NCBI GenBank assembly: GCA_039812705.1
Contig: JBDIBA010000003.1
Location: 10,566 to 74,565, forward strand
Length of the DNA stretch: 64,000 bases
Origin: Acidimicrobiia bacterium
GTDB lineage: Bacteria > Actinomycetota > Acidimicrobiia > Acidimicrobiales > JBBSGY01
Reading direction: 5' to 3'
Shown in pieces: positions 3,501 through 18,299 of this stretch (position 1 is the stretch's first letter; every line of letters starts with the position of its first letter). The notes below the pieces were generated by a model. That model was not told the DNA's origin. It did not search any database and worked only from the letters and a program-made list of their open reading frames with translations. Position numbers and translations under genes: made by a program.

Positions 3501-4610
3501 CTATTCCCAGGAGCGTTTCGCAAGCTGCGATTTCACGCGTTCGATGTAAGAGTTCGCGGCCGGGTCGTGCCATTGGCCCGAGTAGTGAACACCTACACAA
3601 CCCCAGGCGTCGCCACGGGTGCGAGCCCCCAACCAGCCAACCCCTTCGTAACACGCGCGCTTCATGGCAAGCGAATAGTCAAGGTTGTACGCCGTTGAAC
3701 GCGCGCTCATGGGATAAGTGCCAGGGTGATAGTCGCTGCGCACCTGAAGCAGGCCAAATGCAGTCGGACACTCAAAGAGTGGTGTGGTCGTCGTCGTTGT
3801 TGGCAATGCCGAACCAACAGTCGTTGACGGAGTTCCCTCAATGGGTGCAGTCGTTGTCGGTGTTGGAGGTGGTGTCGTTGCCGGACCAGGTTGAGTTGTT
3901 GTGGTTATCCCACCGACGACAACGCGTCGCAAGGACTTGTCTGCGCACTTGGCCGGGTTGGTTTCATACCCACCCAATGCGCCTTGGCGCCAGCCGCTTT
4001 CGACCATCACTTGCGCTCGCACGGGATCTGGGTCAAACCCCCACTTGCACGAAGCCCATTGAATCAACTCGTCTGTCGTGCCGGCGTAACCACCAGTGAC
4101 TCGCTTTGCCAAGTAGGCCGCTGCTGGCCCCCAGTTAGAAAGAGGCGCGCTGCCCTTTCCCTTGGTCTTGTTTGCCTTTGCGTTGGCAGGGCGATTCTCT
4201 CCTGCTCTTGTTACGCGGGCCGCGCATTCAGCATCGCTTGGAAGCGGCTGACCAGGTTGGACCGCGAACGCACCAACATTGTCGTCGGGTGAAGGAGCCT
4301 CAACAGCTAGCGGCGCAGCGGGCAGAGTCGTCGGCACTGCACCTGCCTGCGGCGTCATCAATGGTGTTGCAACACTCGCCAAAACGGTCTGGGGAACAAT
4401 CTGAGCATCCTGACGCGGTTCTTCGCTGCCTTGTGCGCGCATGACGGGTACCTGCGAAGGCACGAACGCCAACAAGACCAACCCACACAAGATGTATTCG
4501 CGCCATCTCTCAGACACGTGGGACAGCCTCGACCCGGCCGCACGAGCGGCGGTCACCGGGTTCATTAGTCGCGCACGCCTAGTCACCCTTACTAATCGGC
4601 AGAAGCTCAA
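3501..4610 (-). CDS. Secreted or membrane-anchored lytic transglycosylase (SLT-like) with an internal Thr/Pro-rich insertion
   Basis: Catalytic-type VMVESGW motif and FGLLQV...Y motif of SLT domains. N-terminal hydrophobic anchor ILCGLVLLAFVPS. About 50 aa of T/P low complexity lies between the two motifs. The true start may be the internal Met at 4565. Confidence 0.65.
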   Translation of the reverse strand: MSFCRLVRVTRRARLMNPVTAARAAGSRLSHVSERWREYILCGLVLLAFVPSQVPVMRAQGSEEPRQDAQIVPQTVLASVATPLMTPQAGAVPTTLPAAPLAVEAPSPDDNVGAFAVQPGQPLPSDAECAARVTRAGENRPANAKANKTKGKGSAPLSNWGPAAAYLAKRVTGGYAGTTDELIQWASCKWGFDPDPVRAQVMVESGWRQGALGGYETNPAKCADKSLRRVVVGGITTTTQPGPATTPPPTPTTTAPIEGTPSTTVGSALPTTTTTTPLFECPTAFGLLQVRSDYHPGTYPMSARSTAYNLDYSLAMKRACYEGVGWLGARTRGDAWGCVGVHYSGQWHDPAANSYIERVKSQLAKRSWE

Positions 4611-4771: not shown

Positions 4772-6142
4772 TCAGCAACGCCTTCTTTGGTTGAGTTCTC
4801 GCGCTAGCCCGTCATCACCATCGAACGCGGCCCGCCACGACGTGATCGCTTGGGAATCGCTGACCTTCCATATTTCCCGGTATGCAATATCTTCCGAAAA
4901 GGTCGGCAGATGATCTTGATTCCAACAGACCGAGCTACGAAAGAGTGCTCCGGGAGCGTTCATGAATCCTGAAACCAGCACCAAGCATGCAACGACACCA
5001 GCACTGAACCTGCGCCATATTTGATCTAGATCCGCGATCCATTGGAGAGCAGGGATAGCAAGAACCACCAGAATCGGCACGGCATCCGTAAGCAAACGTG
5101 GCCCATAGGAATGACCGCCCCACCAGCTATCGAATGTGACTACTGCGACCCACTGAATGATTGCGGCAAAAACCAACGCTATAAACAGTCCATCGAGTAC
5201 ACGCTTACGCACCAAGTACACGACGCCAACAATCGCCAAGGACAAAAACGGTGAAAAGACGAACAATCCGCGCGACGGACTGAACAGCGTGGAGATCGAC
5301 GATCGCGGAACCCACGGCGCAAAAGGGTTCAATCGACCCGCTGCGAAGTATTCGGGAACCGCTGTTCCATAAAGGCTGTTGTTAACAAGAAACCACGGAA
5401 TCAAGACGAAAGCGGCCCCAAGCATCGCAAGTGGAAACATGCGCCGGTGTTTGATCGCCAACCAAATCCCGATGGGTAAAGCGAGAGAAACAGCTGTTGG
5501 TCGCACTGTGTAGGCAGCCGCCAGGGGAATTCCAATCAATGCTGCGAATCGCGGATTTCGTTTCGATTTCAACGCAAGCCAGATTGCGCATAGATACAGC
5601 AACATCACTGGTCCATGTGTCCACAAAGACCGAGTAGCTGAAGACCAAGCACCCGTGCCTAATCCATACGCGAGGGTAACTCCTAGAGCAGTCCACTCCC
5701 GTTTTCCACGGCTCCACTTTGAAAGCAACTCCAATGCAATGTGGCGCATCAACAGTGCTGACAACGCCACCAGAATCGAGGACGTCACCACCTGATATTG
5801 AATGGTTGAGAATGGAGAACCAGGGTCCTCATCAGCAAGCGGCGGTTGGCCTATGCGATCACGAATTGCATCACCAACCCAAACCACTGGCGCCTCAAAT
5901 ATCGCCGGTGTCCAGGGAAAAAACGAGACAAGACGGCCGTTATGGTCGCGAAGTCCGTAGAGGTCTGGTTCTACATACTCTCGGTATCGATTGACATCGA
6001 GGGTTTGATGATGAACGAGCTCGCTGGCAATAAACGAGTACCTCATGGTGTCGGACATCACCCGCACTGGGCTCAGTAAGTAAATCGTCAGAAGAACTGC
6101 GAACAACCCAAGATTGATTGCGATACCTCGAGCGCCCTTCAT
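4772..6142 (-). CDS. Polytopic membrane protein, GT-C-fold glycosyltransferase-like (ArnT/PMT-like)
   Basis: 456 aa with more than 10 hydrophobic segments. Acidic first loop (YREYVEPDLYGLRD) and a late SWWGGHSYGPRLL motif, as in GT-C enzymes. 4-nt overlap with the upstream gene (6139-6142). Confidence 0.55.
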   Translation of the reverse strand: MKGARGIAINLGLFAVLLTIYLLSPVRVMSDTMRYSFIASELVHHQTLDVNRYREYVEPDLYGLRDHNGRLVSFFPWTPAIFEAPVVWVGDAIRDRIGQPPLADEDPGSPFSTIQYQVVTSSILVALSALLMRHIALELLSKWSRGKREWTALGVTLAYGLGTGAWSSATRSLWTHGPVMLLYLCAIWLALKSKRNPRFAALIGIPLAAAYTVRPTAVSLALPIGIWLAIKHRRMFPLAMLGAAFVLIPWFLVNNSLYGTAVPEYFAAGRLNPFAPWVPRSSISTLFSPSRGLFVFSPFLSLAIVGVVYLVRKRVLDGLFIALVFAAIIQWVAVVTFDSWWGGHSYGPRLLTDAVPILVVLAIPALQWIADLDQIWRRFSAGVVACLVLVSGFMNAPGALFRSSVCWNQDHLPTFSEDIAYREIWKVSDSQAITSWRAAFDGDDGLARELNQRRRC

Positions 6143-8436
6143 CTACTGGGTGCCACGGTCATATCAATTATTCGAAAGTTCATTTCTTGCGTGTCAGTTG
6201 GACTCTTTACCGAAGCGGCGTTCGAATCAATCTCGATCTGACTGAAACCCGGCTCGAGCGTCATCTCATGCGCAACCTCAATCGGTTCGTCAGCTGCCGT
6301 TACTTCTTGCTGCTTCCCATCTGGCCAATGCACAACGAAATTGGTTGGCAAACCAAAACCTTGAACAACTTGAAAGGTAATGCGCGTTGCTTGAGCGGAT
6401 CTGGAAACGTTGTTAAGTGGAAGCGTGACGTCTTTCGGAGCCCACACGAAACAGCTTGCCTCTTGACATTGAGGTCGATACGCGGGCGCGCTCACCTGAA
6501 CAGTGACAGGGAAGAACAAACTTTCACGCATTAGCTGCATGTAATTGGAATCCTGTGAATGACGCTTTTCTGAAAAGTCACGAAGGTCGAAGAACGACAT
6601 TCTTCCATTGCGGCTGACAAGTGGCTTTGCTCCAGTAATTGACGACACTTGCGTTTCAATATCGACAGCGCGGTCTTGATACGCGTAGCGATCGATGTAA
6701 AGGCCCGTGAACTCAGCCGCAACGATTTGGTCAAGCAGTGTTGGAACGTCAAAGAAATCCAACCTCGATTGCCAGTCAGCCTCGACACGTCCCTCAATAC
6801 CGCCGTAACTCCAACGCAAGTTCTTCGTATGCAAGTAAGGACGCAACGGATCGTACGCGTCCATCTGGTTGTACTGAAGCTTCATTGGCTCAGGAAACTG
6901 CGTGCGTGGCAGTTGGAACACACGGGAATTGGCAGGCATTGTTGCCTCGACTTTGGCAAAGAAGTCAGCGTCGTCCTGAAACACTTGGCGGTTTTGCGCA
7001 TAGGCAATTCCCTGCGTCATCCCGAACTGATCAAAGGCACCGAACGCCAGAAGAATTGCCAGCAATGCCGCAGCGACAACCGGCTTGCGCAAGGTCACAA
7101 ACTTTCGCGCCGCCTTATCAATCAACAGTCCAACCGCGACCAATGACATGAAGGCAATAACAATTGACATGCGGTTCCAACCGCGAATCTGCGAGGTAAT
7201 CAGCAGCGAAACCAGTGTTGCGAAACCGCCAACCGTTGCGCTTATCAGTGCGACCAAAGTCAGCAATGCAAGATGCGACTCTGTTTCATCTGCACTTGAT
7301 CGACCAACCAATCGGCGAGCAATCACGAACAACAAATACAGCAGTCCAATGGACGCGACCAGGCCCAATGCCGTTGATATGTATTCACCCGGCACTGGAA
7401 ACTTCGAGACGTACTCACCGCGCAACTGAGCTAACGCCTGAATGCGATAACCGTTGTTGGGCAACAACATCTGCGCAAGCTTGAGTCCATAGGTTTCAGT
7501 GTCGGACTCCAACCGCTTTGCACCAAGCACGTTCGCGCCATAGTCGTCGCGATAAGCAAAGGTAGGCGCCGCCAACATGACGAACGTCAGTGCCATGACT
7601 ACAAACACGACGCCGACTTGCACAACGTGTGACCAGCGCCGCTTAAACAACATCACAACCGCCGCCGTGATCAGCAAGATGGCAGTGAACGCCGCGTAGT
7701 AGATCGAGCTGGACACGAGCACTACAGCAAAAAGAACAGTCCGTAGGTTGTGCCAGTTGGCAAACCGTTTCAGATTCGTTACTGACTCGCGCGCGACAAA
7801 CAGAGTTCCGCCTGCCAACACAGTCATTGCCATCCAGACGCCAAGTGGCACAGCGAAATAGCCCGACAGGAAGTAGTGGCTTGGTCCGCGACCAAAGTGA
7901 TACGGAGCTATTGCATAAAGGATCGACAACGCCGTGGCCACCCACGGAGACACACCAAGCTTGCGCATTGCCCACCAGGCGGCAAGACCTATCGCTGGAA
8001 ACTCAATCAAGTAGATGATGTTTTGCAGCGCCGCCCAGTTGTCAGTGAACAGCGAGAACACTTTTGCCACATACAAAGGCAACAGGTCGGTCAGTGGCCA
8101 GTCTTGGTAATGCTGAGTAAAGGGAGCTGCAAGGTAGGGATTGCTCCAGATGGTTCCGTTTTCAATGACTGCCTTAAATGCCATTGAGTTAGTCAACCCG
8201 TCGCCTGAGTAGGCAAACGGAATGCCGAGGTCGGCGTTCCAAACTCGGTAACAAACGCACGCAACCAATAGCGAACCAATCACTGAAGCAATCCACGGAA
8301 GATGTCTGCTGCGCACAAGACTTGCAATCACCGGCGGATTGTACGTGTCCAGGTTGCGCCACACCGGTGTTTCATCGAAGAACGTTGGACCTAGATGTCT
8401 TTGCGCAACTGCAAATACGTACGGCCTTCTATCCAA
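6139..8436 (-). CDS. Large membrane protein: N-terminal polytopic (GT-C/YfhO-like) domain plus about 280 aa extracytoplasmic C-terminal domain
   Basis: 765 aa ORF with about 12 TM segments followed by a soluble C-terminal region. The annotated start overlaps the GNAT gene by 46 nt, so the real start may be an internal GTG (8364 or 8331). Confidence 0.55.
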   Translation of the reverse strand: MDRRPYVFAVAQRHLGPTFFDETPVWRNLDTYNPPVIASLVRSRHLPWIASVIGSLLVACVCYRVWNADLGIPFAYSGDGLTNSMAFKAVIENGTIWSNPYLAAPFTQHYQDWPLTDLLPLYVAKVFSLFTDNWAALQNIIYLIEFPAIGLAAWWAMRKLGVSPWVATALSILYAIAPYHFGRGPSHYFLSGYFAVPLGVWMAMTVLAGGTLFVARESVTNLKRFANWHNLRTVLFAVVLVSSSIYYAAFTAILLITAAVVMLFKRRWSHVVQVGVVFVVMALTFVMLAAPTFAYRDDYGANVLGAKRLESDTETYGLKLAQMLLPNNGYRIQALAQLRGEYVSKFPVPGEYISTALGLVASIGLLYLLFVIARRLVGRSSADETESHLALLTLVALISATVGGFATLVSLLITSQIRGWNRMSIVIAFMSLVAVGLLIDKAARKFVTLRKPVVAAALLAILLAFGAFDQFGMTQGIAYAQNRQVFQDDADFFAKVEATMPANSRVFQLPRTQFPEPMKLQYNQMDAYDPLRPYLHTKNLRWSYGGIEGRVEADWQSRLDFFDVPTLLDQIVAAEFTGLYIDRYAYQDRAVDIETQVSSITGAKPLVSRNGRMSFFDLRDFSEKRHSQDSNYMQLMRESLFFPVTVQVSAPAYRPQCQEASCFVWAPKDVTLPLNNVSRSAQATRITFQVVQGFGLPTNFVVHWPDGKQQEVTAADEPIEVAHEMTLEPGFSQIEIDSNAASVKSPTDTQEMNFRIIDMTVAPSR

Positions 8437-9489: not shown

Positions 9490-9521
9490 GTCAAGCCAAT
9501 CGCATTGCCATCGAGCCGGGG

Positions 9522-9594
9522 TGGAGACGATGGGACTCGAACCCACAACCCTCTGCTTGCAAAGCAGATGCGCTACCAATTGCGCCACGTCCCC
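9522..9594 (-). tRNA. tRNA-Ala (anticodon TGC)
   Basis: The reverse complement folds as a 73-nt cloverleaf: GGGGACG acceptor with the G3:U70 Ala identity pair, anticodon loop TTTGCAA, T-loop GGTTCGAGTCC. CCA is not fully encoded (ACC follows). Confidence 0.95.
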
Positions 9595-9666
9595 GAGACG
9601 GCGAAACTTTAGCCTAGGACAGACATCAGCGGAGGCCGTTTGAGTAGAGAGCCACCTGAGGCTGCG

Positions 9667-10701
9667 TCAAAAGCCTATTCCACCGCTGTCCCAGCGATTT
9701 CCTGTCTCCAAGTCATCATTTGCGCTGCTCCGGTTCCACGAGTTACCCCGCCTGGACGGAGGAATTGACGGTCGAGTCGGAATCTCACTTTCATCGACTC
9801 TCTGATCGATTTCAGACGCATCTTGTGAACTGCCGTCCTCAACCACGCGGAAACCGCCGTCTTCACCGAGGTCGGCTTTGTCCACTGGAGCGTCCATCCC
9901 CGGTCCTCGCTCCGCCCCACTCTCTGGAACGGAATCCTGAGGCCCAAAGCCCATCGACTCGCGCAAGCTCTTGCCGTTAACGGTCAAGTTCTGAGTGCCG
10001 TGTGCGACGAGCCAGAAGTCACCCTCGACATCGACCTTGCCATTGTCTGAGGTCATTGTGCTCAACTTGGGTTTGACTGCCGTTTTCGAGCTCGGCGGCG
10101 CGGCCTTAACGCTCACTCTTGAACTACCAGATGAAATGATGATGGCCCCATCACGCACACCAGAGACGTTCGTTTCCCCGTGTTCTTGCTTAATCACCAC
10201 ATCGTCCGCATTGACGTCCAAGTGACTACACGCAATTCCCTCAAAACGGGCATCTCTTGGAAAGGTCACGTACACCAATGACCTGGACTGTGAATCCTGG
10301 GCAGCGCTTACCTCTTGCGAATGCCGCGTGACATCTTGGATGCCGTCACGAATCGGGGCGCCCGTGCCAGCGTCCAACCACCCTCGAATTTGCCAACCAA
10401 CCCCTTCGACCATTTCGGCGTCAAACTTCTGCTGGTTTCCGCCGACCAAACGCCGGACTACGACATGAGGATCGGAGTCGTCTCGCTGATGGACGCTGAC
10501 ATGATCGTCAAGACCGCTCAGGCTTAGCCTGAGCGGCTCGTGTGACTTGGTTCGCTCGGTTGACTTACGCCTAAACAGATCAGACAACGATGCTTTTGGT
10601 CGAGGGTTGCCCAGCTTTATGACCTCAACCCGGTGGTCCTCCGACCAATTCACTGGTCGTGCCGGTACATAGTCCTTTGGGCCTTCTGACATAAGGCCCA
10701 T
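9667..10701 (-). CDS. Hypothetical beta-rich protein, paralogue 1 of 3, with an acidic disordered C-terminus
   Basis: Shares VxVxFPRDAR..C..L..N.DDVVI.Q..G and G..NLTVNGKSL blocks with 10748..11431. No TM segment or signal peptide seen. Confidence 0.6.
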   Translation of the reverse strand: MGLMSEGPKDYVPARPVNWSEDHRVEVIKLGNPRPKASLSDLFRRKSTERTKSHEPLRLSLSGLDDHVSVHQRDDSDPHVVVRRLVGGNQQKFDAEMVEGVGWQIRGWLDAGTGAPIRDGIQDVTRHSQEVSAAQDSQSRSLVYVTFPRDARFEGIACSHLDVNADDVVIKQEHGETNVSGVRDGAIIISSGSSRVSVKAAPPSSKTAVKPKLSTMTSDNGKVDVEGDFWLVAHGTQNLTVNGKSLRESMGFGPQDSVPESGAERGPGMDAPVDKADLGEDGGFRVVEDGSSQDASEIDQRVDESEIPTRPSIPPSRRGNSWNRSSANDDLETGNRWDSGGIGF

Positions 10702-10747
10702 TGCACCACGGTCAACTGGCGCAATCCCACTTCAGCCGCCTTGGGCA

Positions 10748-11431
10748 TTAACGGCCAAAATCACCCGGAAGGTCTGGTCGGGCGTTGACTGGGCGGCCCG
10801 TAGACAAGGCACCCAAGTCCTTGCCATTGAAAGTGACGTTGCCGGTTCCCTCCAGTTGGATGACATCGGCAGTACCACTCACTGCAATCAGGCCGTCATC
10901 GAACGTTCTCAGTGTTGCAATACCGAGACCGACATTTTCAAGCGATGCCGTGGCCGCACGATCCGCTGTTACCTTCACGGGACCAGAAAGACCGTCAACT
11001 CGTAGCTTCGAGCCGCCACTCAGATTGATGTCCACATCGTTGGCGGGAAAGTCACGCTCACTCAGGATCTTCACTCCGGCACCCCCGGAAGCAAACACCT
11101 TGGCTTTCATCGGTCTATGGACCGTTACGTGGCCACCCTTTTGAAACACCGTGACGTCATCGACATCTGTCACCAATCCGCGACACCCAAAACTGAGCAA
11201 CTTTGCATCTCGGGGAACTGAAATCCTTACCATTGGAGGCTGATGATCAAAGTCCTCTTGCGACAACGTTGGGTACTGTGCCGCGTTTTGGTAGCGCCGA
11301 CTGGTTGCTTGAATACATTCAACCCAGATGCCCGTATCTGTTCGTCTCAGCTGTATATCGCTAGTAGATAGCCCCGACTCCCGACGGACGTCTACGCGAA
11401 CCCCGTCTTCTTCATGAACAACAACTTCCAC
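10748..11431 (-). CDS. Hypothetical beta-rich (solenoid / DUF4097-like by eye) protein, paralogue 2 of 3
   Basis: VRISVPRDAK...C...DVDDVTVFQKGGHVTVH, followed by periodic short G-x-V-x-V type strands and GNVTFNGKDL. 227 aa. Confidence 0.6.
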   Translation of the reverse strand: MEVVVHEEDGVRVDVRRESGLSTSDIQLRRTDTGIWVECIQATSRRYQNAAQYPTLSQEDFDHQPPMVRISVPRDAKLLSFGCRGLVTDVDDVTVFQKGGHVTVHRPMKAKVFASGGAGVKILSERDFPANDVDINLSGGSKLRVDGLSGPVKVTADRAATASLENVGLGIATLRTFDDGLIAVSGTADVIQLEGTGNVTFNGKDLGALSTGRPVNARPDLPGDFGR

Positions 11432-11553
11432 TTTTACGTCGAACCCCTGAACAGTCAGCGTTCTCTGTCACGAGCTTTGACTTTGTGATTGCGGGGACAT
11501 GGAATCAATTGCACCATGACGGCTCGATTAATCCCACTCATGGGCACATACGC

Positions 11554-12285
11554 CTACATGCTGAGGCCTCGGCCGAAATTGTCTCCGTTGTCAAGATCGA
11601 TTTGATCCTCAAAGAACCTCGGGCTCGTGTCCGGATCAAAGCCAAGTTTGAACTCGTCCAGGTTCGTACGAATCTCGGGGTCTACAAGGCGAAACGTTCC
11701 ATCGGGAAGCGTTCCTTCCACGCGACCAGGATGGTCAGCGACCACTTCAAAAGTCGGTTTAGTTTCCTGCCCAGACTGCGGGGCCTTCAACCGCAGCGTC
11801 GTCGGTGAATGAACAACGGTGAACCCGCCACTAGTTACGACCGTTACGTCATCGGCAGCAACTGAAGCGTTGTCGCAGTTGTCCACACGAACGGCCGCAC
11901 CGTCCGGAGTCATTACATGAAACCCACTCTCGCGATATTTCCGCAGCGCCTCAGAACCATCTACAGCCTCTATCTCGAGCTCTGGATCATCCAGGTCTCC
12001 ACCGCAACGACGGGGCCCAATGCCTACTCCTTCGGGCGGCCAAGAAACATGGTTGACGCTTGTAAACACATCCTGCGAGATTGGAGCCGTCACCTCAACC
12101 GCATCGGGTTCAGATTGAGGTCCGCCTTCAGTTACCTCAACTGGAACCGTTTGATCTCTAACGGTCACGACATTTAGCGGTCCGCGCTTGTCTACTGCAG
12201 GGTTCTGTAAAACAAACCTCTTGACGGGTGAAGATGAATCCGTGTCGGCTTGATCGTCGCTCATAGGCCGCTCACCGTCACACAA
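11554..12285 (-). CDS. Hypothetical protein, paralogue 3 of 3 (more diverged)
   Basis: Contains ADDVTVVTSGGFTVVH, matching the DDVTV..GGh.TVH core of the two downstream genes. Acidic N-terminus. Confidence 0.5.
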   Translation of the reverse strand: MCDGERPMSDDQADTDSSSPVKRFVLQNPAVDKRGPLNVVTVRDQTVPVEVTEGGPQSEPDAVEVTAPISQDVFTSVNHVSWPPEGVGIGPRRCGGDLDDPELEIEAVDGSEALRKYRESGFHVMTPDGAAVRVDNCDNASVAADDVTVVTSGGFTVVHSPTTLRLKAPQSGQETKPTFEVVADHPGRVEGTLPDGTFRLVDPEIRTNLDEFKLGFDPDTSPRFFEDQIDLDNGDNFGRGLSM

Positions 12286-12331
12286 ACAGTTAGTCAGTTG
12301 CTAATCGAGGCAGATGCGCGGATCGCGAGCA

Positions 12332-13117
12332 CTACTTACCTGTTTCGCGCGCCATGAACTCGTTGATGTCTTTCCATGAGTTGAGGAACTGGCTTGGAAA
12401 GACAATCGTGGAGTTCTTCTCGGCCGCAATCTCGCCAAGTACTTGAAGGTTTCGCAGCTGCAGCGCAATTGGGTGCTGGGCAATGATGTCTGCAGCGTTA
12501 CCCAACTTCTCGGCGCTCAACTGCTCACCCTCGGCCGCAATGACCTTGCCGCGCTTTTCGCGTTCAGCCTCTGCCTGCTTAGCCATGGCTCGCTGCATTG
12601 TCTCTGGCAACCGAATGTCCTTTAGCTCAACAACGGTTACCTGGGCGCCCCACTCTTCGGTTTGACGATCAAGGATGACCTTGACGCCGGCGTTGATCTG
12701 ATCCGTTTGACTCAAAACGTCGTCAAGCGGCGACTGACCAACGATGTTGCGCACGGTTGTCTGCGCGATCTGATTGATGGCCGCATTGATGTCTTCAATC
12801 GCCACCAATGAACGAATGGGATCAACAATGCGAAAGTACGCAACGGCGGCGACATCAATAGAAACGTTGTCCTGCGTAATGATCTGTTGACTTGGCACAG
12901 GCATGGTTCTGGTTTGCATGTTGACCTTCACCAGACGTCCAACAAATGGCATTACCCAACACGGCCCGGGACCGCGGACGCGCGAGTGAACTCGACCAAG
13001 TCGAAAGATTACGCCTCGTTCGTATTGTTGAATGACACGAAAACCCGACAGCGAAACGGCAGCCACTACGCAAAGCCCGACTGGCAGAAGAGCCAGAACA
13101 CCAACCAACAGTTCCAT
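12332..13117 (-). CDS. SPFH/band-7 (stomatin/slipin-like) membrane-scaffold protein
   Basis: N-terminal TM helix, then VIQQYERGVIFRLGR, a PSQQIITQDNV...VYFRI core and an Ala/Glu-rich coiled coil MAKQAEAEREKR. Confidence 0.9.
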   Translation of the reverse strand: MELLVGVLALLPVGLCVVAAVSLSGFRVIQQYERGVIFRLGRVHSRVRGPGPCWVMPFVGRLVKVNMQTRTMPVPSQQIITQDNVSIDVAAVAYFRIVDPIRSLVAIEDINAAINQIAQTTVRNIVGQSPLDDVLSQTDQINAGVKVILDRQTEEWGAQVTVVELKDIRLPETMQRAMAKQAEAEREKRGKVIAAEGEQLSAEKLGNAADIIAQHPIALQLRNLQVLGEIAAEKNSTIVFPSQFLNSWKDINEFMARETGK

Positions 13118-13150
13118 TTATCGACCTTGCCTCTCAAAGCTTCTACTTGG

Positions 13151-13195
13151 CCAAAAGAATAAGCCCGCCCACTTCAAACAAGTGGACGGGCTTAT
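13151..13195 (-). terminator. Rho-independent terminator downstream of the catalase gene
   Basis: 13159-13195 forms a GC-rich hairpin (AAGCCCG.CCACTT / AAGTGG.CGGGCTT, one mismatch). On the - strand it is followed by TTCTTTT. Confidence 0.6.
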
Positions 13196-13217
13196 CTTGC
13201 TACTTACCAAGCGGCGA

Positions 13218-14870
13218 TTAAGCGAGCTTGTTCCTTTGGTTGTCGACGCAGTGGGTCATTTGCTTGCCCTGAACGTCACGAGGACCGTTCTGGCCAAGGT
13301 TTGCAAGACGCTTCTCGTCTTCTTCGGTGAGGTTCTGGTTGCGAAGTGGCTGCATCCCCTGAATGTCATTCAGTGAAACACCAATGCCATCACCGACTCG
13401 CTGGCCGAGTTCGTCATCGACTAGGTAAAAGTGCCAAACCATGCGCTCTTGGACGTTGCGCGCGGCCTGACCAATCAGGTCGATGAAGTTTGCAACAAGA
13501 TCATCGCGTTCCCACTGCTGCATAAGGCGAAAACGCTCGCCTGCTTGCTTGTAGTCATTAGTGCGTGGCAAGCGCGCGCGGGTGAGACGGCCTTCAATGA
13601 CCGGACCCTGCTCATCGTGCGTTGGGTAGTCGGCCTCGCGCAATCCGCCGGTGATAGACGGTTCGTAATTGACGTGAGGGTTGTCGCCCATTGCATCAAC
13701 ATGCATTGCCATTTGACCATCACGCTGATTTGTTGCGACGCGCGCATTCTTTGGTTGGTTCACCGGCAACTGCAAATAGTTTGGTCCAACGCGGTAACGC
13801 TGCGTGTCGGAGTACGAAAACGTGCGACCAACAAGCATCTTGTCGTCAGAAAAGTCCAAACCATCAACAAGCACGCCGGTTCCAAACGCAATTTGCTCGG
13901 ACTCCGCAAAGAAATTGTCGGGAACCTTGTTCAGAACAATCTTTCCAATTGGCTTTGCCGGAAACTGGTCTTCGGGCCAGGTCTTGGTGTCATCGAGTGG
14001 ATCGAAATCAAGTTCCGGGTGTTCGTTGTCGTCCATCATCTGCACGCGCAATTCCCATTCAGGGAAGTCGCCGTTTTCAATGGAGTCGTAAAGGTCTTTC
14101 GTAGCGTGTCCAACGTCTTGGCCCTGCTGCACCGCGGCATCGGCTTCGGTCATTGAACTGACGCCGGCCTTTGGAACGAAGTGGTACTTCACAAGCTTTG
14201 TTTCACCTGACGCATTGACCCACTTGTAGGTGTTAACGCCGAAGCCTTCTTGCGTGCGGTAGTTAGCCGGAATGCCACGCGGGCTGAACAAGTTGACCAG
14301 CATGTGCATTGACTCTGGCGTTTGGCTCATGAAGTCAAAAATGCGTGCAGGGTCTTGCCTAAAGGTGATGGGGTCTGGCTTTAGAGAGTGAATGACATCT
14401 GGAAACTTGATGGCGTCGCGAATGAAAAACACGGCCAGGTTGTTTCCAACCAAGTCCCAGTTGCCGTCTTCTGTGTAGAACTTGACTGCAAACCCGCGAG
14501 GGTCACGAGCAGACTCGCTGGAGTCACGTCCACCAATCACGGTTGAAAAGCGAAGTGCAATGTCGCTCTTCTTTCCCTTGCTTTGGAAAAGCTTTGCGCG
14601 TGTGAAGTTGGCAATCGGCTCATCGCCCCACTGACCGGTGGCCTCGAAATAGCCCATGGCAGTAACGCCGCGAGCGTGAACTACGCGCTCTGGAATGCGC
14701 TCACGATCAAAGTGACTGATCTTCTCGAGGAACTGGTAGTTCTCAAGAGTTGCCGGGCCGCGCGCGCCAACGGTGCGCTGGTTTTGGTTGTCGTAGACAG
14801 CGTGACCTTGACGGTTGGTCAAAACCTCGCGATTGTCGTTTGACGGATTCTGACGCGCATTGCCTGCCAT
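13218..14870 (-). CDS. katA: Monofunctional haem catalase
   Basis: [15 protein letters not shown] (distal His), [14 protein letters not shown], and RxFSYxDTQRYR with the proximal Tyr. 550 aa. Confidence 0.95.
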
Positions 14871-14972
14871 GTTTCTCCCCTGTTGACTTGCTTTCGAGCA
14901 ACCAAGACCCTATGTGCTTTGAATCGCTAGGTCGACCCCTTTACTCATCAAAGTCATGGCAAAAAGGGGGTT

Positions 14973-15695
14973 CTAGTTGAACATTCCACCTGGATTCTCA
15001 TTGAGCAGCGGATCAATTGCTTCGTCAACATCAACAAACGGGCCATCTTGGGGCAGGGCGTCTGGCTGAATTGCCACAACCACGCCATATTCAACAGTTA
15101 CCGACGCAACCTGTGTCACAAATTCATTACTCATGCCCAAAACCGAGCCTGCTTCAAGAACGCCATCCGTTAATGCGTATTTGAGTCCACTTGTGGTGAT
15201 TCCCGTTGCATCACCACTAACAGCAAGCAGCGATACGAAAGAACCCGGTTCGCCGGTGAGTTGACGCTCTCCGCGCACAACGGTCATCACACAGGTTCCA
15301 CCGATGTAACGCAGTTCCACTCCTGCATACTTCCTTGACGTCATCAACATGACATTTCCGAGCCAGTGATCAAAGCGACCGCCTGCGCCTCCAATGACGG
15401 TGACTACGTCTGGGGTGAGCGCAACTGCCCGGTCCAACGCCAGCTCCAAGTCGGTCTCGTCCTTCTCGGACGGGAAGCGCTCGATCTTTGCACCGAGGCC
15501 CTCTGCTTCATGTATCTCAGCCGGTGACACCGAGTCCATGTCACCAACAACCAAATCGACACGCACATCGAGTACCAGTGCTTGATGCAACCCAGAGTCC
15601 GCGGCGATCGCAAAGTCGTGTCGCGGAACGTCCGCGGGCATCACTTCGCCAAGCTCTCCACCCGCAAAAACAACAATATGAAGTTTGTCAGTCAT
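14973..15695 (-). CDS. Thiamine pyrophosphokinase (thiamine diphosphokinase)
   Basis: Has VVFAGGE, AADSG and the catalytic VVGDMDS motif, plus a C-terminal thiamine-binding beta domain (SGLKYAL). Overlaps the upstream HAD gene by 4 nt and lies under a TPP riboswitch. Confidence 0.8.
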   Translation of the reverse strand: MTDKLHIVVFAGGELGEVMPADVPRHDFAIAADSGLHQALVLDVRVDLVVGDMDSVSPAEIHEAEGLGAKIERFPSEKDETDLELALDRAVALTPDVVTVIGGAGGRFDHWLGNVMLMTSRKYAGVELRYIGGTCVMTVVRGERQLTGEPGSFVSLLAVSGDATGITTSGLKYALTDGVLEAGSVLGMSNEFVTQVASVTVEYGVVVAIQPDALPQDGPFVDVDEAIDPLLNENPGGMFN

Positions 15696-16393
15696 AACCC
15701 GCTCAATACTGGCGCGATTTGACGGGTAGATCGAACAGATACTTGGTGAAGTTTGTCCAACGTCACCTCACTCATCGAGGAAAACATCGCAACCGCGTTG
15801 TCGACAAAACCCGGATCTGTTTGCGATGGAATCAAGACTGCTGGAATGCGCGCGTGCTTGAGCGCTTGCACGCCTCGGCGCGAATCTTCAATTCCGAGTG
15901 CTTCATGTGGATCAACCCCAACTGATTGCAAGGCAAGGTGATGAATGTCGGGTTTTGGTTTTCCGTTTCCGCGTCCAACGTCATCAATCGTCAGCACGTG
16001 ATCAAACATGGATCGATGGTGTGGCATTAATACATCGCTCACCCAAGCCCGCGAGCCATTTGTGGCGATCGCCAGTTGCAATCCTTCCTCTTTGCATTCA
16101 TTGAGCAAGTCATGAACGCCGGGCATCAAGCCCCGCTCTCGAATGTCAGCCATCACCTCGCTACGAACTCGCTCAACTAGAACGCGGTCCAAGAAAACTT
16201 GATGGTTGTCATGCAAGTGTTGCGCCGGATGCCGGTCATTGGTCATCAGATGGCGCCAGGTGTCATAACCAAGCTCAAAGCCATGCGTTGAATAGATTTC
16301 TCGCCACGCGTAGAACCACGGGGTTTCCGTCTCGACGCAGGTGTTGTCCAAGTCAAAGATCGCGACCTTCAGCCGCGACTTGTCGCTTTGCAT
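15692..16393 (-). CDS. HAD-superfamily hydrolase, candidate thiamine-monophosphate phosphatase
   Basis: HAD motif I, IFDLDNT, then motif II ATNG and motif IV EDSRRG. This is the first gene downstream of the TPP riboswitch. The substrate is inferred from context only. Confidence 0.75.
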   Translation of the reverse strand: MQSDKSRLKVAIFDLDNTCVETETPWFYAWREIYSTHGFELGYDTWRHLMTNDRHPAQHLHDNHQVFLDRVLVERVRSEVMADIRERGLMPGVHDLLNECKEEGLQLAIATNGSRAWVSDVLMPHHRSMFDHVLTIDDVGRGNGKPKPDIHHLALQSVGVDPHEALGIEDSRRGVQALKHARIPAVLIPSQTDPGFVDNAVAMFSSMSEVTLDKLHQVSVRSTRQIAPVLSGL

Positions 16394-16485
16394 TCTTCCT
16401 CCGCTGGCATTACCCAGATCAGGTAGCGGGTCGACGGTTTAGAACCGTCCTCTCAGCCTGATGAATCAAGCTCCCCGGTTGTCTT
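16394..16485 (-). promoter_or_regulatory. TPP (THI-box) riboswitch
   Basis: The - strand reads CCGGGGAGC..CAGGCUGAGAGG..ACCC..ACCUGAUCUGGGUAAUGCCAGCGGAGGAAGAAUG. All conserved THI-box cores are present, and the 3' end runs into the GGAGG Shine-Dalgarno of the ATG at 16393. Confidence 0.9.
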
Positions 16486-16516
16486 GTATGACTTGTGAAG
16501 TTAGTCCGCTCGCGGT

Positions 16517-17548
16517 CTAGCCGTGCGAGGAAGTGTGACCCTCGAACACCGCTGCACGAACACCACATGTCGAAAGGTCTTTAAGAAACGCTGCCGTATC
16601 GTCGACCAAGACGCCGAGTGATCCAGCACCCGAACGCGCATATGCCACGCGTACGGCCCAGATTCCGGCGACGGCTGCAACTGTTCCAGCCGCAACCGCT
16701 GGACGATCAAGCGCGCCATACACACGAGTTTCTGCGCGGCCTTCGTGAGTTCCTCGCAGTTCGACACGAACAGCACCGAGCAAGCCTTCTGGATGAGGTT
16801 TGCGCAACATTGGCAGCCACTTCGTCGAACGGTCTCGTCGTGTTGCAGCAAGCCGAGCTGTAATGCGAGAGGCCTGTGGGAAAGCGTCGTGCAGCAACAA
16901 GGGTTCAGGCAAAGAGGCTTGGTAACAGTCGAGTCCGCCAACGGGGTCGGGAAACCAAAACAATTCGCGACCCGAACCACCTCGCGCGGTTACCCATTCC
17001 CCATCGACGCGATTCAGTGCATCGTTTCGCAAGCTGCGGTGGTGTTGGCGCGCGCAACTTGGACCACCCGTACCCATTCGTGCCACATGAACCTCGTCAA
17101 CGCGGTCCATCTTGCGAACACCATGCTTTGCAAGAACGCAAGAAAAGCCGGGGGAAAACGCTGCCCCGACAATCATTGACTTGTTCATTTCATGTGCAAT
17201 CGAGTCAAGCGCAATCAGGTCTTCAACAACGTCAACGTCGTCTGAAGTCGAAACAACATGGGCGCCACTACGTAGTGCGGCTTCGGCGAATGCCTCATGG
17301 TCGTCTTCTGCACTCAGAATCACAAGATCACAGCCGTCAACTACATCGAAAAAGTTCGCCAACCGGGTCTCAGTGCGTTGACCGGGGATCTTCACAACGC
17401 GAGCAGGTGAGCCGTACGACAAAACGGCGTTGTCAGCCACGGTCTGATCGGTTTCAACAATGATCAGATCCTCAACTGCAGCATTGGAAAGCAATTGACG
17501 CCCTGCTCGTGCACCCGTAGCGCCGGCTCCGTAGAGAAGTACCTTCAT
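16517..17548 (-). CDS. Saccharopine dehydrogenase-like NAD(P)-binding protein
   Basis: Rossmann N-terminus MKVLLYGAGATGARAG. I place the start at the internal Met (17548) because an upstream small ORF stops with a TGATG overlap there. The track ORF extends to 17581. Confidence 0.65.
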   Translation of the reverse strand: MKVLLYGAGATGARAGRQLLSNAAVEDLIIVETDQTVADNAVLSYGSPARVVKIPGQRTETRLANFFDVVDGCDLVILSAEDDHEAFAEAALRSGAHVVSTSDDVDVVEDLIALDSIAHEMNKSMIVGAAFSPGFSCVLAKHGVRKMDRVDEVHVARMGTGGPSCARQHHRSLRNDALNRVDGEWVTARGGSGRELFWFPDPVGGLDCYQASLPEPLLLHDAFPQASRITARLAATRRDRSTKWLPMLRKPHPEGLLGAVRVELRGTHEGRAETRVYGALDRPAVAAGTVAAVAGIWAVRVAYARSGAGSLGVLVDDTAAFLKDLSTCGVRAAVFEGHTSSHG

Positions 17549-17694
17549 CAGTCGAAATCGGGCCCGGAAAGCTCGCGCCAACCGCCGTCACTCGTAGGCA
17601 CTTCAGACTCGGAGTTCACACGTAGGTAGGCGGCCACCACACTTGCAATTCCCAAGGCCACAACTGTGCGGCGAATTGCGGAGATCATTGACAT
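17548..17694 (-). CDS. Small (48 aa) single-TM protein, translationally coupled to the downstream dehydrogenase-like gene
   Basis: Translates as MSMISAIRRTVVALGIASVVAAYLRVNSESEVPTSDGGWRELSGPDFD*. Its TGA overlaps the ATG of the next gene by 1 nt. It is below the 60-aa cut-off of the track. Confidence 0.4.
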   Translation of the reverse strand: MSMISAIRRTVVALGIASVVAAYLRVNSESEVPTSDGGWRELSGPDFD

Positions 17695-17820
17695 GACTAC
17701 AAACTACGCCCAGTCGAACTCGACGTATTCGTTTTCACAACGTGCGGCTTCGAGGACCAGACCGCGGTTGAGCAAGCTCTATTCAATCTGCGCTTCGCTA
17801 GCGGCCGTAGCGCTCTACGT

Positions 17821-18072
17821 TTGCGGCCCATGGGCAATACGAACCAAGAGCTACTGACTGCTGAAGAACATGATCTCGTTGATGATGCAGGTCGTCTGTA
17901 CACAAGAATTACTGAATCCTTTGGTGATGGAAAACACAAAGAAATCGACCTGATCGAGATTCGATTGCACATCCATGCCATTCAGCACGCAATCATGGCC
18001 AACGCGGCAGCAAGGGCATATCCAGACCGATACCGTCTTCGTGGTCAGGCCGGAGCATACGAGGCGAAGTAG
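17821..18072 (+). CDS. Hypothetical small helical protein
   Basis: 83-codon ORF (an ATG alternative exists at 17830) in an otherwise unexplained 590-bp gap. No recognisable motif. Confidence 0.3.
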   Translation: MRPMGNTNQELLTAEEHDLVDDAGRLYTRITESFGDGKHKEIDLIEIRLHIHAIQHAIMANAAARAYPDRYRLRGQAGAYEAK

Positions 18073-18173
18073 TTCTGGAGTCTGCTGTGCTCAACAATGA
18101 CCGCCCGTTGGGCCGAGCTGGGCAACAAGAGCTCGGCGACCTGCACGCGGCGAACACGCCGACAACGAGTGGG

Positions 18174-18247
18174 TGGGGCTAGGAAGAATCGAACTTCCGA
18201 CCTCAGCATTATCAGTGCTGCGCTCTAACCGACTGAGCTATAGCCCC
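18174..18247 (-). tRNA. tRNA-Ile (anticodon GAT)
   Basis: Reverse complement is GGGGCTATAGCTCAGTCGGTTAGAGCGCAGCACTGATAATGCTGAGGTCGGAAGTTCGATTCTTCCTAGCCCCA. It is a 74-nt cloverleaf with anticodon loop CTGATAA. Confidence 0.95.
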
Positions 18248-18299
18248 AAGGACCGCCCGATGGTAACCGAACCTTGGAGGGTGCGCGACGCGACTTTCA

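Follow-up and report, generated by a model that had tools for sequence, protein, structure and literature searches.

The question raised by this locus is whether three genes of no recognizable family that follow a stomatin-type SPFH gene work with it or merely lie beside it. To our knowledge, few clients besides NfeD are known for bacterial stomatin-type SPFH proteins, and a link between SPFH and beta-solenoid proteins has so far been proposed only indirectly, via Psp systems. If the three proteins, here called P1, P2 and P3, truly work with the SPFH protein, this type would gain a new kind of partner, and the locus would be a case, concrete and open to testing, in which an SPFH scaffold organizes soluble beta-solenoid proteins; at present the locus is one among many lineage-specific clusters of hypothetical proteins in a poorly sampled, uncultured actinobacterium, which synteny around oriC assigns to that phylum. 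The reading put forward here, tentatively but as a real possibility, is that a stomatin-type SPFH protein without NfeD is accompanied by three old, strongly diverged paralogues, soluble, acidic and all-beta, which may be its membrane-docked adaptors or clients. Below, the window is the whole 64-kb stretch of DNA analyzed.

Gene arrangement and boundaries

An ORF scan of the window finds four minus-strand ORFs in succession, SPFH (261 aa, 12332–13117), P1 (11554–12264), P2 (227 aa, GTG start, 10748–11431) and P3 (344 aa, 9667–10701), and then a tRNA gene. The layout of four same-strand genes in the first-pass annotation was reproduced throughout, in its coordinates and in its gaps of 46, 122 and 46 nt. 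P1 has 243 aa if read from a TTG at 12285 and 236 aa from the ATG at 12264, the form called by gene callers on independent contigs; with the ATG start the gap between SPFH and P1 is 67 nt, not 46 nt.

The 5′ boundary of the block is an intrinsic terminator (13159–13195, minus strand) that belongs to the catalase gene upstream and was identified from an inverted repeat (94% complementary, 5-nt loop) and from RNA folding as a G+C-rich hairpin of 16–17 bp followed by UUCUUUU. The fold of 13118–13217 reaches −44.1 kcal/mol (z=−5.6), and none of 200 shuffles was equally stable. The 3′ boundary is a co-directional tRNA-Ala(TGC) (9520–9594, minus strand; found by ARAGORN, 72.4 bits with the Rfam tRNA model), 72 nt past the P3 stop, at the end where it had already been placed. 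Between these limits no terminator pattern was found on the coding strand, and the three internal spacers and the P3–tRNA spacer have no significant RNA structure (z from −0.8 to 0.0).

The shared strand, the gaps of 46–122 nt and the strong terminator upstream, with none inside, favor an operon-like reading, and on this sequence evidence co-transcription of SPFH, P1, P2 and P3 is plausible. The same features speak against a rival explanation, somewhat doubtful but credible, in which the adjacency is incidental and P1–P3 are a lineage-specific, fast-evolving orphan islet by tRNA-Ala, functionally untied to SPFH. Other parts of the layout suit incidental adjacency better: the 122-nt spacer between P1 and P2 could house a promoter of its own, and the block lies in an 8.6-kb stretch from tRNA-Ile to tRNA-Ala, which it shares with unrelated genes (for catalase, thiamin pyrophosphokinase and a 354-aa orphan). 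The marks of a mobile islet at tRNA-Ala are missing, however: the end of the tRNA has no att-like direct repeat, G+C content does not shift clearly, and no integrase was noticed among the ORFs and Pfam results inspected. The proposal of membrane-docked partners is itself weakened by the scant space left for a promoter, some 35 nt (read from the sequence) between the U-tract of the catalase terminator and the SPFH ATG, and by a pattern scan that found no sigma-70-like site.

The SPFH protein and the absence of NfeD

That the first gene encodes an SPFH protein, as initially called, is confirmed by a match to Pfam Band_7 (PF01145) of 132.1 bits (cut-off 23.6, E=2.8e-38) over profile positions 2–175 of 176. 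Among PDB sequences it matches a stomatin (5e-56), the PH1511 stomatin (9e-52), QmcA (1e-32) and HflK (2e-11), while its scores with the NCBIfam HflK and HflC models are well under their cut-offs. Judged by these comparisons, it is of stomatin type, with the HflK/C and flotillin branches farther off than stomatin. Residues 3–21 (LLVGVLALLPVGLCVVAAV) form its single predicted N-terminal membrane anchor, with a 19-residue Kyte-Doolittle mean of 2.82; since arginines cluster after the anchor, the positive-inside rule predicts a cytoplasmic SPFH domain.

The window contains no NfeD gene, in agreement with the first-pass annotation. A profile for NfeD, made from 49 loci related to this one, matched none of the 512 window ORFs (best E=0.44), and its E-value of 4.9 on P3 is noise, which disposes of P3 as a disguised NfeD. 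Among the matches listed in SPFH searches, 49 of 160 related loci have NfeD, and where its position was checked it lies directly upstream. It is missing from the 85 closest relatives among these matches (L007–L054 and L090–L126; 56–68% identity), which are mostly Saccharibacteria and other Patescibacteria, and accompanies only more distant ones. Stomatin-NfeD operons (Pyrococcus PH1511/PH1510; E. coli QmcA-YbbJ) resemble the present locus in that a stomatin-type SPFH gene comes first, encodes an N-terminal anchor and leads a short same-strand run of genes. The locus differs from them in having no NfeD and in having companions that are downstream, predicted soluble and unrelated to NfeD.

None of the 160 loci, again among the matches listed, carries P1–P3-like genes; the genes downstream of SPFH there are unrelated to them, as would be expected if the adjacency is incidental. 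The loci compared are distant (at most 68% identity to the query), so that 0 of 160 amounts to absence of support, not refutation, for a conserved linkage of SPFH and these paralogues. Synteny was no route to orthologues either, as the SPFH scans gave, among the matches listed, distant loci with no neighbors in common; closer relatives may lie outside that listing.

P1, P2 and P3 as a family

P1–P3 are acidic (pI 4.3–5.6, with P1 at 4.3) and by prediction soluble. The earlier view that they have neither transmembrane segments nor signal peptides holds up: no 19-residue stretch of theirs exceeds a Kyte-Doolittle mean of 1.15, where the SPFH anchor reaches 2.82, and their N-termini, read by eye, are unlike signal peptides. 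The claim that all three are paralogues stands firmly for just one pair. P2 and P3 are clear paralogues by sequence comparison (BLASTP E=3e-7; Smith-Waterman z=9.2, p~4e-6, with 0 of 1000 shuffles as high; phmmer E~1e-6 among the 512 window ORFs). P1 is marginally placed as a third, most divergent member, with Smith-Waterman z-scores of 3.9 against P2 (p=0.004) and 3.6 against P3 (p=0.006); a P2+P3 profile ranks it first among the 510 other window ORFs (E=0.0012, next ORF 0.15). Taken together, P1–P3 count as one paralogous family, alike beyond chance and in the same order along a common core, with P1 the least secure member.

The shared core motif first described is present in full in P2 (ISVPRDAK...C...DDVTV..GG..TVH), but P3 (FPRDAR...C...DDVVI) lacks the GG..TVH part and P1 has TPDGAA where the motif has VPRDA, leaving P, A, C, DDV, G and V invariant across the three. 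The C-terminal block attributed to two of the proteins is there in P2 and P3, as GTGNVTFNGKDL and GTQNLTVNGKSL. In P3, the part paralogous to P2 is a core of about residues 60–250, preceded by an N-terminal extension and followed by an acidic tail of ~90 aa that is taken as disordered from its composition.

Searches for relatives

No homologue of P1–P3 beyond their own species was detectable in ~15 billion public protein sequences; word-indexed searches, like a complete HMMER run of a profile against 1.84 billion representatives, returned same-species sequences only. Comparisons with Pfam, NCBIfam, PADLOC, PHROGs, PDB sequences and viral contigs gave no family match, so the description of the three as proteins of unknown function survives profile-HMM searching, which places them in no characterized family. 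As there is no homologue outside the species, a conserved linkage with SPFH cannot be demonstrated, and this too fits incidental adjacency.

An alternative of a different kind is a conflict module (phage defense, anti-defense, or toxin/immunity-like) in which SPFH is the membrane part and the paralogues are fast-diversifying sensors or effectors. The orphan status of P1–P3 is compatible with arms-race evolution, but such a module is unlikely. P1–P3 have no significant match in PADLOC, PHROGs, BFVD or IMG/VR, and no viral relatives; PADLOC-DB 2.0 gave no family at E≤1 for any of the four proteins, SPFH included; no nuclease, NTPase, protease or pore domain is recognizable in P1–P3 with Pfam or NCBIfam; and no other defense genes occur among the eight flanking genes scanned (GNAT, RibD_C, catalase, TPK, HAD and three without a Pfam match). 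SPFH itself has the catalase gene as its upstream and P1 as its downstream neighbor.

Two sets of weak matches were set aside. Residues 93–203 of P2 align by tblastn (49 bits, E=2e-4) to the alpha subunit of a Rieske oxygenase encoded on a Paraburkholderia plasmid. This is considered chance: the Fe-S ligands are missing, P3 has no such match and P1 no comparable family match, and the alignment spans what is presumably the border between the Rieske and catalytic domains, which was counted against it. The same stretch of P2 aligns weakly, at 21.6 bits, with NCBIfam TIGR03228 (cut-off 671.9), and Rieske oxygenases appear neither among PDB matches to P2 at E≤10 nor in the large protein searches. 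Matches of a three-paralogue profile to designer “Pizza” propellers in the PDB (E=0.015) are repeat-driven and below threshold.

Predicted fold and comparison with Toastrack proteins

The periodic short strands noticed at first in P2 are not a sequence repeat (segment-against-segment z≤0.5, weak hydrophobic autocorrelation) and are seen nowhere but in an AlphaFold model, which predicts about 20 of them. This single-sequence model is all-beta and of medium confidence (pLDDT 65.6, pTM 0.65), and the five models disagree (mean pLDDT 34–66, with the four others at 34–57). The model of the P3 core from a three-paralogue alignment (pLDDT 48.9) is unusable, and the SH2 matches that Foldseek returned for it are meaningless. 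With the P2 model Foldseek found no significant match (E≥0.2, TM<0.5); the best full-length ones, 3lyc, 3jx8, 3ljy, 3pet and 4ygu (TM 0.36–0.44, E 0.3–5), are also non-significant. We take these five “putative adhesin” entries to be DUF2807/DUF4097-type structures. At the sequence level the toast-rack likeness proposed earlier found no echo, as Pfam DUF4097, DUF2807 and DUF2154 are silent on P1–P3 even at E≤1 and the three-paralogue profile matched no Toastrack chain among PDB sequences. As a suggestion from the model, the toast-rack idea is weak.

The comparison is of interest for the role it would imply. PMC11237479 brings Pfam DUF2807 and DUF4097 together under the name Toastrack and proposes that they serve inside the cell as assembly platforms beneath the membrane; a docking plate of this sort would be an apt partner for an SPFH scaffold. 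P1–P3 would resemble Toastrack proteins (DUF4097, DUF2807, DUF2154; LiaG, YvlB and the LiaF C-terminal domain) in being soluble and intracellular and, if the P2 model is right, all-beta with many short strands. Apart from the silent HMMs and non-significant structural matches, they differ in having no TM segment or extra fused domain, unlike Toastrack fusions, and in being confined to one species, whereas Toastrack is widespread in bacteria. The typical Toastrack context (PspC, LiaI-LiaF-TM, SHOCT, PspA, two-component genes) is absent from the eight flanking genes scanned, in which no Psp- or Lia-type domain bears out the envelope-stress setting first suggested. Passages of PMC11237479, the paper that defines Toastrack, tie Band-7 and Toastrack each to PspA, not to each other. 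A parallel is offered by the B. subtilis ydjFGHI-type operon, in which, according to a passage of PMC8581546, an SPFH protein connects PspA, encoded alongside it, with the membrane; the operon appears in PMC11237479 as ydjFGHL, with pspA coupled to a Band-7 gene. There, as would be the case here, an SPFH protein is encoded with a soluble partner tied to the membrane (PMC8581546, same passage), but the present locus has no PspA/ESCRT-III-like gene, and its companions are predicted beta-rich orphans, not helical polymers.

If P1–P3 are membrane-docked partners, the four genes would be transcribed together and the SPFH domain would face the cytoplasm; P1–P3 would be beta-solenoid, Toastrack-like plates with broad binding surfaces, which may dock at the SPFH oligomer, or be organized by it, at the membrane's inner face, and would serve as adaptors or clients and not as enzymes. 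The proposal is weakened by the lack of a family model match, the non-significant Foldseek results, the discordant models and the lack of a repeat in P2. Overall, a functional link is only weakly favored; P1–P3 are hypervariable orphans, a family restricted to a single species, and their tie to SPFH is putative.

Variation among strains

P1–P3 are a hot spot of within-species polymorphism, ~7x more variable than their flanks. In two strains SPFH has no differences in 786 nt while P1–P3 have 23 in 2430 and 26 in 2309 (Fisher p~1e-7 in both). That the hot spot ends at the SPFH boundary favors incidental adjacency; that it is patchy among strains and centered on P1–P3 is what a conflict module would lead one to expect. 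So are the breaks within P1 or P3 seen in metagenome contigs from at least three samples, with flanks that assemble over 9–18 kb, and the nine non-synonymous differences to one synonymous in P1 against strain L001. Amino-acid polymorphism is highest in P1, with pN/pS at or above parity, compared with ~0.25–0.46 for P2 and P3. Pooled over the three genes there are 30 non-synonymous and 17 synonymous differences, an estimated pN/pS below 1, and the counts are too low to demonstrate positive selection, which again argues against a conflict module. With the high polymorphism, the 30:17 ratio suggests weak constraint, unusual for a fixed structural partner.

Weak constraint, together with the lack of homologues or a known domain and the low-confidence prediction for P3, might also suggest decaying or functionless frames left open by chance after an old duplication. 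This is very improbable: three frames of 227–344 codons are still open despite divergence to ~25% identity, P2 and P3 keep their low pN/pS, and Shine-Dalgarno-like, purine-rich stretches precede the starts (read from the sequence). All 18 strain variants have intact frames, with indels in multiples of three. Paralogy, reading frames that stay intact from strain to strain and indels that keep the frame identify P1–P3 as real coding genes, and a three-gene family with no relative in public protein collections can thus still be demonstrated as real.

A combination of the membrane-docked and conflict readings, quite improbable as it stands, would make P1–P3 a new class of fast-diversifying beta-solenoid proteins that partner, in the cytoplasm, a stomatin cage lacking NfeD, in a membrane-surveillance or conflict module where SPFH reports membrane perturbation and the paralogues are strain-specific sensors or effectors; it would account for the close packing of the genes as well as for the concentration of allelic diversity in P1–P3. 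The contig breaks and patchy polymorphism mark the locus as strain-variable, which is relevant to binning and comparing genomes of this lineage. Length also varies, P3 occurring in forms of 340–344 aa with in-frame changes between strains in its tail, and strain L172 has an 18-nt in-frame insertion at 9697.

Organization of the SPFH Gene Cluster

The gene for the stomatin-like SPFH protein (12332–13117, minus strand, 261 aa) is followed on the same strand by three ORFs: P1 (11554–12264, minus, 236 aa from the ATG used by gene callers or 243 aa from a TTG at 12285), P2 (10748–11431, minus, 227 aa, with a GTG start), and P3 (9667–10701, minus, 344 aa). The last element is tRNA-Ala(TGC) (9520–9594, minus). 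The spacers between the four genes are 46 nt (67 if P1 begins at its ATG), 122, and 46 nt, as the first-pass annotation had them, and 72 nt separate the P3 stop codon from tRNA-Ala. A fitting description would be a novel form of SPFH gene cluster, with orphan proteins as the companions.

SPFH is adjoined upstream by a catalase gene ending in a strong terminator (13159–13195), whose hairpin has an energy of -44 kcal/mol (z = -5.6; minus strand, 13118–13217). No significant structure was found in the spacers within the block or before the tRNA, and a single SPFH-P1-P2-P3 transcript is plausible on sequence grounds. As read from the sequence, the terminator leaves only about 35 nt ahead of the SPFH start codon, and a search for a sigma-70-like promoter found none; SPFH expression may therefore depend on either read-through from catalase or a non-canonical promoter.

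The SPFH Protein and Its Relatives

The first gene does encode a genuine SPFH protein of the stomatin branch, with a Pfam Band_7 score of 132 bits against a cut-off of 23.6. Its matches to PDB sequences (stomatin, 5e-56; PH1511, 9e-52; QmcA, 1e-32; HflK, only 2e-11) are those of an ordinary stomatin-type member. There is a single hydrophobic anchor at the N-terminus with an arginine cluster after it, which under the positive-inside rule predicts a cytoplasmic SPFH domain.

SPFH loci were compared in other genomes and metagenomes. Linkage to similar paralogues did not recur: none of the 160 loci among the matches listed (48–68% identity; closer relatives are possible) has a P1–P3-like ORF. With this on one side and the plausible common transcript on the other, it is quite possible, if on the whole doubtful, that the adjacency is incidental and P1–P3 are an unrelated, fast-evolving orphan islet beside tRNA-Ala. 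The reading that we tentatively prefer, at somewhat less than an even chance, is that P1–P3 are soluble partners of an SPFH assembly. That the genes are real, paralogous, orphan, and variable is established, as is the terminator layout; the shared transcript, the fold, and the physical link to SPFH we infer. P1–P3 would be soluble beta-solenoid, Toastrack-like proteins, expressed together with the SPFH gene and acting at the cytoplasmic face of the assembly. Both their function and their link to SPFH are putative.

NfeD, the usual SPFH partner, is missing from the window, as had been noticed at first pass. Among the matches listed, it accompanies SPFH in 49 of 160 loci, every one of them among the more distant relatives (no more than 57% identity), and its absence is common to the nearest retrieved relatives. 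The closest of these in GTDB genomes (loci L007–L054 and L090–L126, 56–68% identity) are, among the matches listed, mostly from Saccharibacteria and other Patescibacteria MAGs, with just one from an Actinomycetota MAG (L042, 62%), in contrast to the window itself, which is actinobacterial by synteny. Transfer of the SPFH gene between episymbionts (Saccharibacteria/Patescibacteria) and actinobacterial hosts could be suggested, though weakly.

P1–P3 Are Paralogous Orphans

All three proteins are acidic (pI 4.3–5.6) and soluble, and none has a transmembrane segment, in agreement with the first-pass annotation. In 18 of 18 strain variants, drawn from independent metagenome assemblies, the frames are intact. 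Length is constant for P1 (236 aa) and P2 (227 aa) and ranges from 340 to 344 aa for P3; the indels, 3 and 18 nt long, preserve the frame. One same-species contig (L172) has an 18-nt in-frame insertion at 9697, within the acidic C-terminal tail of P3.

The proposed paralogy is clear for P2 and P3 (BLASTP E = 3e-7 across 140 residues; Smith-Waterman z = 9.2, a score reached by none of 1000 shuffles). P1 is marginal in pairwise comparisons with P2 and P3 (p about 0.004 and 0.006, respectively), but heads the non-self matches when a P2+P3 profile is run against 512 window ORFs (E = 0.0012; next ORF, 0.15), aligning at the common core C...DDVTV..GG..VH. The longer motif originally described is complete in P2, but P1 and P3 do not fit it fully, and no sequence repeat corresponding to the claimed periodicity of P2 could be detected.

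No meaningful matches to P1–P3 were found in Pfam or NCBIfam, and none in PADLOC, PHROGs, PDB sequences, or viral contigs. Word-indexed searches with each protein against 5.8 billion protein clusters gave nothing beyond same-species proteins, 98–99% identical, and a full HMMER search of 1.84 billion representatives with a three-paralogue profile recovered only P1–P3 themselves. As far as public data go, they are thus an orphan family restricted to one species. Judging by the large ORFs nearby that lack Pfam matches, uncharacterised proteins seem to abound in this lineage, and this status is the less special for it.

Residues 93–203 of P2 (10823–11155) align with a Rieske-type oxygenase alpha subunit from a Paraburkholderia hospita megaplasmid (locus L089, 3001–3321; 49 bits, 32% identity), outscoring the genuine P2–P3 paralogue match. 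The metal ligands are missing; P2 has no match to PDB Rieske oxygenases, P3 does not show the similarity, and P1 has no comparable family match. The alignment was set aside as a probable chance match.

AlphaFold predicts P2 alone as all-beta, with about 20 short strands (best model pLDDT 65.6, pTM 0.65; the other four, pLDDT 34–57); the P3 model, with a pLDDT of only 48.9, is unusable. Foldseek found no significant match to the P2 model in PDB or BFVD. The non-significant BFVD matches are generic beta-helix proteins, and the top full-length PDB neighbours, also non-significant (TM 0.36–0.44), are the “putative adhesin” structures 3lyc, 3jx8, 3ljy, 3pet, and 4ygu, which we take to be DUF2807/DUF4097 members. 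PMC11237479 unites Pfam DUF2807 and DUF4097 as Toastrack. The toast-rack likeness proposed earlier for P2 is compatible with these data but not demonstrated. Neither sequence nor gene context places P1–P3 with Toastrack proteins. P1–P3 may function as Toastrack plates do, although they are not assignable as members.

Variation within the Species

P1–P3 are a polymorphism hot spot. Relative to the window, same-species contig L001 has 23 differences in 2430 nt of P1–P3 and eight in 6236 nt of flanking genes (Fisher p = 1e-7); for L006 the figures are 26 in 2309 nt and none in 1800 nt (p = 5e-7). The differences are patchy (10165–10184, 10563–10595, 10754–10787, 11667–11673, and 12039–12062). In at least three samples (ERZ27299004, SRR8929703, and ERR12726375) contigs from both sides stop inside P1 or P3, at 9969, 10020, and 10660 in P3 and at 11784, 11791, 11853, and 12261 inside or at P1, while the flanks assemble to 9–18 kb, which hints at co-existing alleles interrupting assembly.

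Pooled differences comprise 30 non-synonymous and 17 synonymous changes. The pN/pS ratio is about 0.25–0.46 for P2 and P3 and near or above 1 for P1 (0.80 and 2.86 in two full-length comparisons, with small counts). Such a pattern would be expected if constraint is weak, or if alleles recombine under diversifying selection, and it helps to account for the failure to detect distant homologues. It is very improbable that P1–P3 are functionless reading frames. A conflict or defence-type module is unlikely. Hypervariability together with a total lack of relatives is curious, but lineages with sparse sampling commonly contain orphan clusters.

The oriC Region

By gene order, the window is the oriC region. 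One flank carries dnaA, dnaN, recF, gyrB, gyrA, and tRNA-Ile (the first three named by position and ORF size, gyrB and gyrA by Pfam and PDB matches), and the other yidC, jag, rsmG, and parAB, then trxB, a pseudokinase, MurJ, DUF6049, and the CCA-adding enzyme. Large ORFs nearby without Pfam matches encode 765 aa (6139–8436; the sequence looks hydrophobic, like that of a membrane protein), 456 aa (4772–6142), 369 aa (3501–4610), and 354 aa (16517–17581).

tRNA-Ile(GAT) and tRNA-Ala(TGC) are 8.6 kb apart (9520–18248), with the 354-aa orphan, a riboswitch operon, catalase, SPFH, and P1–P3 between them. In Mycobacterium tuberculosis the two are adjacent after gyrA, and the interval may therefore be a lineage-specific insertion space. 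Its TPP riboswitch (Rfam RF00059; 16378–16487, minus; 58.3 bits, with the gathering score at 54.3) is directly upstream of genes for a HAD-family hydrolase (15692–16393) and thiamin pyrophosphokinase (14973–15695), in what looks like a riboswitch-controlled thiamin salvage operon.
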